Shown here: positions 49,582 to 51,555 of the stretch, piece after piece
How positions within the stretch are numbered: the stretch's first letter is position 1
How the letters are laid out: the number at the start of each line of letters is the position of its first letter
NCBI GenBank assembly: GCA_036676495.1
Contig: JAKFCT010000101.1
Span: 1-57,790 of the forward strand
Direction: 5' to 3'
DNA length: 57,790 nt
DNA from: Candidatus Sericytochromatia bacterium
Lineage (GTDB): Bacteria > Cyanobacteriota > Sericytochromatia > S15B-MN24 > UBA4093
The notes under the pieces: model-generated
Seen by the model: only the letters and a program-made list of their open reading frames with translations
What the model was told of the DNA's origin: nothing
The model's database searches: none
Program-made: the position numbers and the translations under genes

Positions 49582-51555
49582 ATGGCCGATATGAACGTGA
49601 ACACCCCGCGCCCGATGACCGGGCCGCTGCGCCAGACGGCACCGCTGGGCACCTCTCCGCTCAATGCGGCTGCGGTCAACCTGCCGGTCGACGGTCCGCG
49701 CGGCACGCGGGATCTCATGGAAGCCAACCTCCCGACGGCCCTCCCCCCCGGAGCCTCGGCCCTCAGCGATCGCGCGGCAAGCAAGCTCTCCGGCCTCTCG
49801 TCGGGCGTGCGGCAGATGGTCCTCTCGGAAGGCATCACCGACGTCATGCCCACCCAGGCCAAGCAAGAGCAGATCCGGGCGAACCTCAAGCGCGAGATCA
49901 GCTCCCTGGTGCCCGGCGGCGTGACCATCGCCGACGCCGGCGCCAAGTGGTCGGCCTCCGACCTCGCCGCCCTCCACGACGTCATCAAGGCCATGCCCGC
50001 CGCCGATCGCTCGGCCCTCTCGGGGATGGTCTTCGAGCGGGACGGGGCGATCGCCATGAAGAGCGGAGACTACCATTCCAACGTTAAGAGCCTCTTCAAG
50101 GGCGAGGATCTGACCTCCGGATCCCTCGGCGGCGGCGCCTACTTCGGCCCCCAGTCCACCGGCGCCTCCGAGGAGAAGCCGGGCGGCGTCCGCGGCATGT
50201 TCACCAAGATCCGCGACTTCTTCCGCAACCTCGGCATCAAGCTCTTCAAGCCGCTGATGAACGAGCAGCAAATTGCCCAGTTCAAGAGCCAGGCGGCCGA
50301 AGGCAAGATCGTCCTCACCCACTCGGGCTCCATGGTCGCCAAGGACATGCTCGCCCACGAGATCGGGCACATGGTCCAGATGAACGGCGGCCGCTGGGAT
50401 CCCGCCAAGATCAAGGAGTTCTCGCAGCTCTCGGGCTGGACCGAGCAGTACCAGGACGGCACCCGCGAGACGGCGGACGGCATCGACAACCGCACGGGCG
50501 AGATGCTCAAGTACGAGTCGGGCATCGTCAAGCCTACCCGCGACGACAACTTCGTCTCGCAGTACGCCAAGGCCGACCCCATCGACGACTTCGCCGAGAG
50601 CTACCGGGCTTACCTCAACGACCCCGCGAGCCTGATGAAGGCCGCCCCCGAGAAGGCGCTCTTCCTGAACGCCCAGTCGGGCAAGTACACCCGCGCCGAG
50701 GTGGCCGAGTTCGCCAAGGCCGCCGGCGTCGACCTCCAGGACGTCTTCACCAACCTGGTGCTCGACGGCAAGCTCAAGCAGGAGACCCTCAACGCGATCG
50801 CCGACATGAACGGGGTGCAGGCCGACAAGCGCCGGATCTCGTCGGGCGCCGAAGCGCCCGCGGGAGACGCCCTGGCCGAGGCGACCTCCAAGATCACGGC
50901 CAAGGCCATCGTGGGCGACTCCGCCTTCGTCAACCAGCTCCTGACCAACCCTCAGCAGGCCCTGGGCGCCGAGCTCTGGGACAAGCTCTCCGCCGACGAG
51001 CAGGACATGCTCAAGGATCGCGACTTCGTCCGCGGCATCGTCTCGGACCTGGGAGCGGGGCGGGCCTCGGCGGCCTCGGCGGGCCTCAGCATCAAGATCG
51101 AGATTGCCCGCGAAGGCGTCCGGGACACCTTCGGCCTCCTGGGAGGCACCGATGGCAAGTCCCAGCAGTTCCGCACGGCGCTGGCCGCCGACCCCGAAGC
51201 CGCGCTCAAGGGTGCCGGACTCTGGGACAAGCTTCCCGAGGAGCTTCGCAAACCCTTCGTCGATCCCGCCAACCGCTCGGCCGTCCAGCAGCTCGCCCAG
51301 GCCATCTCGGCCAGCCAGCCGTCCGGCAAGATGGGCTGGCTGATCAAGGTGGGCAACCAGTCGGTCTCCCCCGAGGTGGCCGCAGCGAACCTCGAAAGCT
51401 ACGTGAAGCAGCTTCAGCCCGAGCACTTCAAGGCGTTCGCCGAGCGGCTCAACGATCCGGAGTTCGCCGGCAAGGGCGCTCAGGTCCTGCAGTCCGTCAT
51501 CAAGACGGGCCGAGCCCCTGCGATGGCGGCTGACGGTCCTGGCGGAGCCGTCTAG
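49582..51555 (+). CDS. Zincin-like metalloprotease domain fused to two NHLP/ComX-leader-like repeats (657 aa)
   Basis: AGGAGG RBS; HEIGH...FVSQYA..PIDDFAE; repeats FVNQLLTNPQQAL..LWDKL and FRTALAADPEAAL..LWDKL. Confidence 0.7.
   Translation: MADMNVNTPRPMTGPLRQTAPLGTSPLNAAAVNLPVDGPRGTRDLMEANLPTALPPGASALSDRAASKLSGLSSGVRQMVLSEGITDVMPTQAKQEQIRANLKREISSLVPGGVTIADAGAKWSASDLAALHDVIKAMPAADRSALSGMVFERDGAIAMKSGDYHSNVKSLFKGEDLTSGSLGGGAYFGPQSTGASEEKPGGVRGMFTKIRDFFRNLGIKLFKPLMNEQQIAQFKSQAAEGKIVLTHSGSMVAKDMLAHEIGHMVQMNGGRWDPAKIKEFSQLSGWTEQYQDGTRETADGIDNRTGEMLKYESGIVKPTRDDNFVSQYAKADPIDDFAESYRAYLNDPASLMKAAPEKALFLNAQSGKYTRAEVAEFAKAAGVDLQDVFTNLVLDGKLKQETLNAIADMNGVQADKRRISSGAEAPAGDALAEATSKITAKAIVGDSAFVNQLLTNPQQALGAELWDKLSADEQDMLKDRDFVRGIVSDLGAGRASAASAGLSIKIEIAREGVRDTFGLLGGTDGKSQQFRTALAADPEAALKGAGLWDKLPEELRKPFVDPANRSAVQQLAQAISASQPSGKMGWLIKVGNQSVSPEVAAANLESYVKQLQPEHFKAFAERLNDPEFAGKGAQVLQSVIKTGRAPAMAADGPGGAV

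Follow-up and report, generated by a model that had tools for sequence, protein, structure and literature searches.

ComQ-type peptide prenylation and pherotype polymorphism are known from Firmicutes, together with one recently described enzyme from Chloroflexi. In the staphylococcal agrBDCA system, the processing enzyme, the peptide and the sensor's N-terminal domain form a hypervariable block between conserved flanks. The sections available of a Bacillus study (PMC4008528) describe a ComP receptor with a variable N-terminus of about ten transmembrane (TM) helices, a conserved cytoplasmic part and pherotypes that coexist in soil, and a 2014 census, as far as the accessible part of it goes, placed comQXPA-like loci in Firmicutes only. 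In the portions available of two further reports, the ComQ family is defined by a FARM (first aspartate-rich motif) and a pseudo-second aspartate-rich motif (pseudo-SARM, NDxxx) (10.64898/2026.08.29.745113; PMC10853753). According to the same part of the first of these, StheQ has a Gln one helical turn before the pseudo-SARM (Q212/N215/D216) and a single metal site at the FARM (10.64898/2026.08.29.745113); the second, again in excerpt, presents the PalX-PalQ-PalP system of Paenibacillus alvei as one that combines a precursor of the NHLP type with an all-alpha prenyltransferase, alongside a membrane sensor kinase (PMC10853753). Here, we describe a three-gene locus on a 57,790-nucleotide stretch of DNA from Candidatus Sericytochromatia bacterium (assembly GCA_036676495.1, contig JAKFCT010000101.1, positions 1 to 57,790; hereafter the window). 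It encodes P4, a protein of 657 residues with a putative metallopeptidase domain and leader-like domains, P2, a polyprenyl-synthase-like enzyme of 312 residues, and a sensor phosphatase of 847 residues. The domain make-up of the three proteins, their conserved gene order, the existence of paralogous trios and a co-located hypervariability were all observed, and they led us to read the trio as a specificity cassette working like Bacillus ComQXP or Paenibacillus PalX-PalQ-PalP, built from different parts; we hold the chances of this reading to be evenly balanced. We consider it very probable that the trio is a single functional unit whose genes diversify together.

All three genes lie on the forward strand. 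The P4 gene (49582-51555, stop codon at 51553-51555) probably starts at the ATG at 49582, behind a GGAGG ribosome-binding site at 49571-49575. Residues of P4 were counted from this position because the GGAGG precedes the ATG and the database copy of the protein also has 657 residues. P2 (51559-52497) begins four bases past the P4 stop codon, behind a GGAG, and is translationally coupled to it. The sensor gene (52530-55073) encodes PDZ, GAF and SpoIIE/PP2C domains recognised by Pfam at 52716-52880, 53865-54260 and 54450-55067, respectively.

The strongest evidence, which was absent from an initial annotation of this DNA, is a hypervariable block that spans P2 entirely, together with the tail of P4 and ~340 codons at the start of the sensor (51511-53550). 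Six close loci were compared, consisting of the window, two genomes of the same genus and three metagenome contigs. Identity between them was 86-98% for LexA, 83-91% for the body of P4 and 86-92% for the sensor C-terminus (from residue 331); it was 45-58% for P2, 52-55% for the sensor N-terminus (residues 1-330) and 43-93% for the last 14 residues of P4. One pair was exceptional, with 93% identity in the tail, 71% in P2 and 87% in the sensor N-terminus, though one of its members had the most distant flanks of the set. This incongruence fits exchange or long-lived polymorphism of the block, either of which would produce it. The terminal dipeptide of P4 was AV in the window and GF, GF, GL, MM and AM in the other five loci; of all P2 pairs, the two closest (71% and 58%) also had the terminal dipeptides that resembled each other most, which we regard as a hint only. 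Analysis of DNA identity in 150-bp bins against three relatives gave 80-96% up to 51449, 42-72% for 51450-53549 and 87-92% from 53550 onwards, with sharp edges at about 51.5 and 53.55 kb. The block is about 2 kb long, and in close relatives its flanks keep an identity of 80-97%. Polymorphism of the modifier, the signal end and the sensor N-terminus, next to a conserved output domain and conserved flanks, is the pattern of a pherotype locus.

The same pattern was found in two other genera. In genus g4, identity was 85-99% in the flanks, 87% in the P4 body, 50% in P2, 51% in the sensor N-terminus and 92% in the sensor C-terminus, and the tails differed only in their last two residues. The corresponding values in genus g2 were 88-94%, 82%, 57%, 59% and 88%, again with different tails. 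A pair from genus g9, which belongs to family f4 and has no P2 at the locus, had 91% identity in the P4 body, 93% in the sensor N-terminus and 95% in the sensor C-terminus, with identical tails; this pair is a single natural control for the block pattern. Protein database searches returned 16 P2 clusters at 46-92% identity to that of the window, compared with 8 P4 clusters at 81-89%.

Logan contigs assembled from soil metagenomes of three studies (X1-X3), which show the presence but not the absence of a sequence, were mapped to the locus. P4 and the 3' part of the sensor were covered by several strains (summed depth 20-76). Across 51501-53410, study X1 had only one source-like contig (51436-53609) without differences. 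A second X1 contig (depth 13.8) aligned across the block only in pieces and represents a co-occurring allele in the likely source sample. Over the same interval, X2 had one contig of the same type (51436-53583) with 185 differences, and X3 had next to nothing (depth 0-6), one of its contigs diverging from the window at 51509. The contig ends from two soil studies (51436 and 53583/53609) coincided with the edges of the block, as expected where co-occurring strains diverge.

The gene order of the family was fmt-(methyltransferase)-LbH-P3-P4-P2-sensor-(KGG)-LexA-GroES. P2 directly followed P4 in 8 of 11 ortholog loci, and the sensor came next wherever the loci reached that far. The three loci without P2 all belonged to family f4 and had P4 abutting the sensor (L016 and L017, that is G022:C120 and G016:C62, and L021); the f4 genomes retain P2-bearing paralogous modules elsewhere. 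Searches of 41 genomes from the class gave P4-family matches in 34. The P2 family was cleanly separated from housekeeping synthases (E of about 1e-37 or better vs about 1e-15), and a P4-family hit lay beside 22 of the 27 P2-family hits (E <1e-40, order-level genomes), three of the other five being at contig ends. The trio is conserved across Candidatus Sericytochromatia, and it recurs as paralogous modules with two layouts. Type A modules consist of a P4 of 620-730 residues, P2 and a PDZ-TM-GAF-PP2C sensor, the PDZ domain being found in all five further sensors scanned. Type B modules consist of P2, a P4-like protein of 990-1250 residues without HExxH and a phosphatase of about 500 residues with two TM helices, GAF and PP2C. 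The long proteins of four type B loci (L038-L041: G011:C35, G019:C33, G025:C60 and G015:C1) had no Pfam match; in three of them, the C-terminus reads R-(F/Y)-L. One locus (L024, G018:C4:11000-28000) carries 4-5 tandem P4 paralogs before a single P2 and sensor, one copy having an in-frame TGA. P2-like genes from family f6, in another order, were also considered (L044 and L045); they have no P4-family or SpoIIE match nearby, and because they stand alone they are uninformative about the partner. The neighbours of L045 look like flagellar and redox genes on reading their open reading frames (ORFs).

P2 matched the Pfam polyprenyl synthase family PF00348 (E 3e-16), in agreement with a predicted polyprenyl-synthase fold. 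A profile search of the PDB retrieved the geranylgeranyl diphosphate (GGPP) synthase 1wy0 (E 1.4e-27) and, in the top five, the indole prenyltransferase Ord1 (9v4g-j, E 2.4e-20). The FARM is present as DDAQD (51805-51819) and a pseudo-SARM as Q-x-x-S-D (52168-52182). Across 22 P2 sequences (27-83% identical to that of the window), residues D80, D83, D84, D87, D89, Q142, D145, K166, Q204, D208 and D219 were invariant, so that D83, D84 and D87 of the FARM were kept in 22 of 22. Position 207 was Ser in the genus of the window, Asn in the f1-family loci L018, L019, L020 and L022, and Ser in the more distant L015, L023 and L024; the resulting Q-x-x-(S/N)-D spacing equals that of Q212/N215/D216 in StheQ. 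P2 therefore retains the site for the prenyl donor, made up of the FARM and the Q/D/K residues. Relative to a GGPP synthase, P2 has lost an RRG-containing segment after the FARM, a trait that, like the pseudo-SARM, it has in common with peptide prenyltransferases of the ComQ family, and a conserved W-P-V...L-P stands where elongating synthases carry their N-terminal basic motif (GGKRxR). The P2 reading frames were all intact. The initial annotation had called this gene ComQ-like, and the description holds as far as the motifs go, with an isoprenyl diphosphate synthase (IPPS) fold suggested by the profile matches, a FARM and a pseudo-SARM preceded by Gln. ComQ enzymes have beside them a short precursor whose acceptor Trp lies close to the C-terminus; here, the neighbour is a 657-residue protein. 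P2 looks like a peptide prenyltransferase rather than a chain-elongating synthase when judged from these sequence features.

P4 comprises, in order, a disordered N-terminus, a zincin domain, two NHLP-clan-like domains, a short helical region and a disordered tail. An AlphaFold2 model of the whole protein, built from a 27-row alignment, had a predicted local distance difference test score (pLDDT) of 72 and a predicted template modelling score of 0.70. Residues 1-51 and the loop 158-239 were disordered, a mixed alpha/beta domain was present, and the C-terminal region was all-helical, with a pLDDT of ~87-96 across residues 330-520. With E values up to 0.001 allowed, Foldseek matched no PDB structure to the whole P4 model or to a C-terminal model. 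A short N-terminal motif, M-A-D...R-P-x-T-G-R-L, is common to P4 orthologs and paralogs and precedes the disordered stretch (49582-49640 in the window); paralogs were also seen in which it is replaced by T-G-x-L repeats. The shared motif may be a recognition or export tag.

The repeats, HEIGH, DFAE and the Trp of GKMGW on which the initial annotation had relied were all found in place within a single ORF. It had proposed two internal repeats resembling NHLP, Os1348 and ComX leaders. The repeats are real: hidden Markov models (HMMs) built from the orthologs each detected the other repeat in the window, the repeat 2 model finding repeat 1 at 21.9 bits and the repeat 1 model finding repeat 2 at 15.5 bits. 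The cores correspond to residues 438-477 (50893-51012) and 528-559 (51163-51258). Two 'DP' motifs at residues 341 and 619 were considered as extra repeats and rejected, neither HMM detecting them. The leader-like character was reproducible between homologs, with scores under the curated cut-offs in the window. NF038399, the Os1348 family, matched the window protein over two stretches (E 6.4e-8, 32.6 bits vs a cut-off of 40), TIGR03793 scored 17.3 bits (cut-off 50.9) and PF14407 21.3 (cut-off 48). Among 12 P4 homologs (alignment A1), NF038399 matched 12 (best E 1.7e-11), TIGR04509 12, TIGR03793 eight and PF14407 five. The TIGR03793 match spanned residues 433-463, the best NF038399 stretch 529-547 and the PF14407 match 528-577.

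Structural matches to the clan were weak. In a separately folded C-terminal model (pLDDT 85.5, aligned residues 426-495), the Os1348 structure 6lk7 ranked fourth of 48,161 chains against domain 1, with a low Z of 3.7 (root-mean-square deviation (rmsd) 4.3, 64 of 78 residues, 22% identity). Against domain 2 (residues 505-599 of the whole model), it again gave a low Z of 3.4 (rmsd 4.8, 71 aligned). Saposin-like matches to residues 427-508 (Z 4-5.6) were set aside as a common small helical arrangement. A PDB sequence-profile search with the C-terminal 240 residues returned nothing significant, an NHLP-leader chimera (8tb1) having an E of 0.92 and Os1348 not being listed. On profile and model evidence, the repeats appear to be two tandem domains of ~80 residues that are clan-like but uncertified members of the NHLP clan. 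Domain 1 (residues ~426-505, 50857-51096) contains repeat 1 and Trp 466 and is the predicted docking surface for P2; domain 2 (residues ~505-599, 51094-51378) contains repeat 2 and an insertion with Trp 586. A canonical NHLP leader belongs to a small precursor with one leader and one core peptide; here, two copies lie at ~426-599 of a 657-residue protein.

Docking of the ComQ-like enzyme by the repeats, another proposal of the initial annotation, is in line with complex predictions. P2 (alignment A2) was modelled with residues 420-657 of P4 (alignment A3) in three runs and alongside three controls. The interface score ipSAE was 0.76 (0.75, 0.79 and 0.76 in individual runs) vs 0.16, 0.00 and 0.00 for the controls. 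Among 80 solved complexes, 58 attain the mark used, as do 2 of 110 mismatched pairs; this calibration is only rough with our own alignments. The runs agreed in at least 62% of contacts, with a partner pLDDT of at least 66. Confident contacts involved residues 429-443 and 472-493 of P4, which form helices on both sides of the repeat 1 core and are predicted to rest on P2, and residues 156, 231-238 and 261-278 of P2. Conservation of the P4 interface somewhat exceeded that of the remaining C-terminal region (0.53 vs 0.44, permutation p 0.03). The predicted complex supports binding between P4 and P2, and a resemblance to complexes of leader and enzyme among the training data may contribute to it.

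The hypervariable part of P4 is its tail (residues 644-657, 51511-51552), which is predicted to be disordered (pLDDT <50, about the last ten residues in the AlphaFold2 model). The tail is of conserved length and terminates two residues past a P(P/G) or GG motif. We collected 74 family proteins with a match reaching the C-terminus, which gave 54 distinct twelve-residue ends. The last residue was Leu in 11, Met in 10, Gly in 9, Ala in 6, Cys in 5, Ile in 5, Phe in 3, Val in 3, Thr in 1 and Pro in 1. Position -3 was Pro in 29 and Gly in 12, and a charged residue was found in the last two positions of a single tail. Cys occurred in the last two positions of 9 tails, compared with 0.11% Cys in these proteins overall, and Met in 12, compared with a background of 2.27%. 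Judged by its composition, the tail appears to be a fixed-length hydrophobic or sulfur-bearing C-terminus without a universal side-chain nucleophile. It could be a substrate of P2 (through Cys where present), a PDZ ligand, or both.

We propose the following scheme for the cassette. NHLP-like domain 1 would dock P2 in the manner of a leader of peptides that the ribosome makes and that are modified after translation (RiPPs), as the complex models predict, and P2 would act on the nearby C-terminal tail of P4. The modified C-terminus, attached or released, would be read by the PDZ/TM domain of the cognate sensor, and this would alter the PP2C output to a partner-switching target encoded at another place in the genome. 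Seven STAS-domain matches were found elsewhere in the genome, none linked to this locus; STAS proteins could be PP2C substrates. Covalent modification of P4 by P2 is conceivable, with chances that we place somewhat short of even. Tentatively, and with a lower expectation, an enzyme of the IPPS fold might modify the extreme C-terminus of a large cytoplasmic protein, giving a lipidated, strain-specific end that is read by a receptor of the PDZ-10TM-PP2C type. The acceptor would then be the thiol of Cys where present and elsewhere perhaps the terminal carboxylate or the backbone. If true, this would amount to a bacterial parallel of CaaX/Rab prenylation that dispenses with Trp and uses another enzyme fold. 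It would also be the first recognition system of the pherotype kind in Cyanobacteriota, and the first anywhere with a phosphatase receptor and a self-contained protease-leader-core precursor.

Several results weigh against such a cassette. Were the block to move as a unit, co-variation of the tail, P2 and the sensor N-terminus would follow from linkage alone. The tails share no common prenyl acceptor: Cys is near the end in only 9 of 54, the P4 tail of the window finishes with small aliphatic residues, and Trp is found in the last twelve residues of 5 of 54 and in the last four of none. The complex prediction did not confidently place the P4 tail in the active site of P2, and the P2 side of the interface was no better conserved than average (0.46 vs 0.46, p 0.72). 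The best sequence neighbours of P2 are ordinary GGPP synthases, and NCBIfam holds no ComQ-specific model that matches it at E up to 1. The window protein reached the curated cut-off of none of the NHLP-clan models, and the structural Z to Os1348 of 3.4-3.7 is too low to stand alone. The PDZ domain of the sensor is predicted to face outwards, whereas P4 has no visible signal peptide, none being evident on reading its sequence. No PDZ domain was found in the three type B phosphatases scanned, so the PDZ reading of the tail is not universal; since type B modules lack both features, neither the PDZ domain nor the zincin motif is essential to the role of the trio. No expression data were found for the locus.

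The arrangement of the sensor bears on the explanation that survives best besides the cassette. The protein has, as far as its sequence indicates, one TM helix before the PDZ domain and about nine after it (to ~53640). From this TM count and the positive-inside rule, we infer that the PDZ domain is outside and the phosphatase inside. P2 might make or hold a strain-specific isoprenoid that is read by the sensor TM domain, P4 being a regulated protease or scaffold that binds the PDZ domain by its free C-terminus. RsbQ-RsbP, an enzyme-plus-phosphatase pair, provides a model for such a system. It would account for hypervariability of the entire TM bundle of the sensor rather than of the PDZ domain alone, and PDZ domains bind uncharged hydrophobic C-termini such as those of P4, which end in Leu, Met, Gly, Ala, Cys, Ile, Phe or Val at a fixed distance from P(P/G) or GG; a PDZ domain was present in all six type A sensors scanned. 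However, the predicted contact between P4 and P2 and their tight translational coupling point to a direct relation. The RRG segment found in chain-elongating synthases is missing from P2, the PDZ domain is absent from type B modules although these retain P2 and the conserved tail, and no export signal is evident in P4. We hold this explanation to be unlikely.

A different role would follow from the peptidase domain of P4. The structure aligned best with residues 98-367 (49873-50682) by VIA-align was the catalytic domain of anthrax lethal factor (1yqy; Z 8.5, rmsd 3.5, 166 aligned), and further matches were PPEP-3 (Z 6.4), another Pro-Pro endopeptidase (5.7), the MtfA-like hydrolase 3dl1 (6.2) and a Peptidase_Mx structure (5.6). 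Over the homologs in alignment A1, Pfam recognised Peptidase_Mx in 12 of 12, ATLF in 7 and M90 in 7, the ATLF and M90 scores of the window protein itself being under their cut-offs. Residues H259, E260, H263, D336 and E339 were invariant or nearly so. The initial annotation had seen a zincin signature in HExxH with a downstream DFAE, and both the Pfam profiles and the lethal-factor-like fold bore this out. Conservation of HEIGH (50356-50370) and DFAES (50587-50601) on such a predicted fold makes the domain a putative M34-like gluzincin peptidase. Together with the PPEP fold matches (Z 5.7-6.4), the many tails with PP two residues from the end prompted us to consider Pro-Pro self-cleavage near the end of the tail; this was dropped because PP is missing from the tail of the window and a cut there would leave just two residues beyond it.

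With a lethal-factor-like fold in P4 and weak eCIS_core matches in 2 of the 12 homologs, the trio could belong to a conflict system for kin exclusion or defence, in which the exposed domain of the sensor diversifies under pressure from phages or competitors, P4 is a lethal-factor-like effector and P2 its partner. The tandem array of 4-5 P4 paralogs before one P2 in genome G018 and the sharp edges of the hypervariable block would suit such a system. Variation is limited to the last ~14 residues of P4, however, and no toxin domain varies; the catalytic motif is dispensable in several lineages, the catalytic residues of P2 are invariant, unlike those of an immunity protein, and the output of the sensor is an ordinary PP2C signalling domain. 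We consider a conflict system quite improbable.

The initial annotation had suggested that P2 prenylates a Trp peptide, that of GKMGW or another, and that the HExxH domain cuts it out in cis to give a ComX-like pheromone. In its favour, P2 has the FARM/pseudo-SARM logic of Trp prenyltransferases and is predicted to dock on repeat 1, which contains the near-invariant Trp 466, and a Trp lies ten residues from the end in three of the six close alleles. The flagged Trp of GKMGW is residue 586 (51337-51339), 71 residues before the end of P4, and sits in an insertion that is confined to the genus of the window and absent from distant orthologs; its expected conservation among homologs was not found. 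The Trp of repeat 2 was not kept in distant orthologs either. Trp 466 (50977-50979) was invariant in 21 C-terminal sequences (alignment A4) and kept in most of the wider family, which makes it the only near-invariant Trp of the C-terminal region. It is placed by the model in a short helix inside the folded domain (pLDDT >90) and outside the confident contacts of the complex; because this helix is confidently folded rather than part of a flexible tail, Trp 466 would be ill suited as a ComX-like acceptor. No Trp occurs among the final four residues in any of the 54 distinct tails, and Trp is a very unlikely acceptor for P2. Excision in cis by the zincin cannot be general, since HExxH has been lost in two relatives of the family, P0022 and P0025, and in all four long type B paralogs examined. 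The pheromone model as a whole is highly improbable. What stands of the initial interpretation is the leader-like repeats, the ComQ-like motifs and the predicted docking; the flagged Trp and general excision in cis do not. Finally, the view that nothing special is encoded here, only generic helix-turn motifs, incidental adjacency and relaxed constraint on a decaying prenyl synthase paralog, could appeal to NHLP scores under the cut-offs, weak structural matches and the empty C-terminal PDB profile search, but it is already disfavoured and extremely improbable given intact P2 frames with invariant active-site residues, a trio conserved in paralogous copies across families, and a sharp-edged block that extends into the adjacent sensor domain and is seen in three genera.

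Two neighbouring genes are described here for completeness. The gene upstream of P4 (48439-49377, +) encodes a protein of about 312-335 residues without a Pfam or NCBIfam match, which adjoins clusters resembling D12-class N6-adenine DNA methyltransferases in a protein Atlas (score 0.97, 221 of 256 features). It lies outside the hypervariable block and was matched only in family f1 among the loci examined. After the sensor, a gene on the reverse strand (55398-55697, -) encodes a 99-residue protein with three near-identical repeats of ~22 residues rich in Lys, Gly and Glu, conserved in several relatives, which we take to resemble the general-stress 'KGG' repeat proteins.

Judged by their listings, literature searches on Sericytochromatia signalling and ComQ/PalQ-type enzymes gave no paper that describes the P4-P2-sensor arrangement. 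If the cassette reading is right, the same evolutionary logic, in which modifier, signal end and sensor domain diversify together, is present in the non-photosynthetic sister lineage of the cyanobacteria, made of different parts. Such a system would extend the acceptor chemistry expected of enzymes with the IPPS fold and would be a case of NHLP-type leaders that serve for docking from within large proteins. It would also make strain-level recognition accessible to study in soil bacteria that are uncultured, since alleles can be exchanged and assayed in vitro.

The resemblance to known systems is partial in each case. The agrBDCA system differs in its thiolactone chemistry, its histidine kinase receptor and its small precursor. 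The M34 zincins (lethal factor, PPEP and MtfA) are like P4 in fold and in HExxH with a downstream Glu in a DFAE-like motif; unlike them, P4 has no toxin delivery domains, is fused to leader-like domains and has lost the catalytic motif in some relatives. StheQ of Sphaerobacter and Ord1, as far as the available descriptions go, share with P2 the IPPS fold, the donor at the FARM and the Gln one turn before an N/S-D pseudo-SARM, but their acceptor is an indole, and StheX is a 69-residue protein with Trp second from the end, unlike P4. In PalX, the available part of the source describes an NHLP-type leader that binds a prenyltransferase acting at the extreme C-terminus, with a sensor gene in the cluster (PMC10853753). 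By the same partial account, the PalX precursor is small and carries a conserved Trp at its C-terminus, whereas P4 has two NHLP-like domains in a large protease-bearing protein with a varied last residue; PalQ forms its own cluster in the superfamily (PMC10853753), and P2 is set beside it by description only. The likeness to ComQXPA, within the sections of the sources available, lies in an IPPS-fold modifier with FARM and pseudo-SARM beside the substrate gene and a polytopic sensor with ~10 TM helices, and in polymorphism of the modifier, the signal end and the sensor N-terminus, with a conserved cytoplasmic part and alleles coexisting in soil (PMC4008528). The ComQXPA substrate is a peptide of ~55 residues and the receptor a histidine kinase; here, the substrate would be a 657-residue zincin protein without a conserved Trp in its variable end, and the receptor a PDZ-GAF-PP2C phosphatase without a kinase domain, with no ComA-like regulator in the operon. 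The order of genes, substrate-modifier-sensor, is unlike that of ComQXPA, and the phylum is Cyanobacteriota. Because it has no small precursor and no conserved Trp, and because its receptor is a PP2C phosphatase and its protease domain is fused, we class the locus as one that would work like ComQXP and not as a member of that system.

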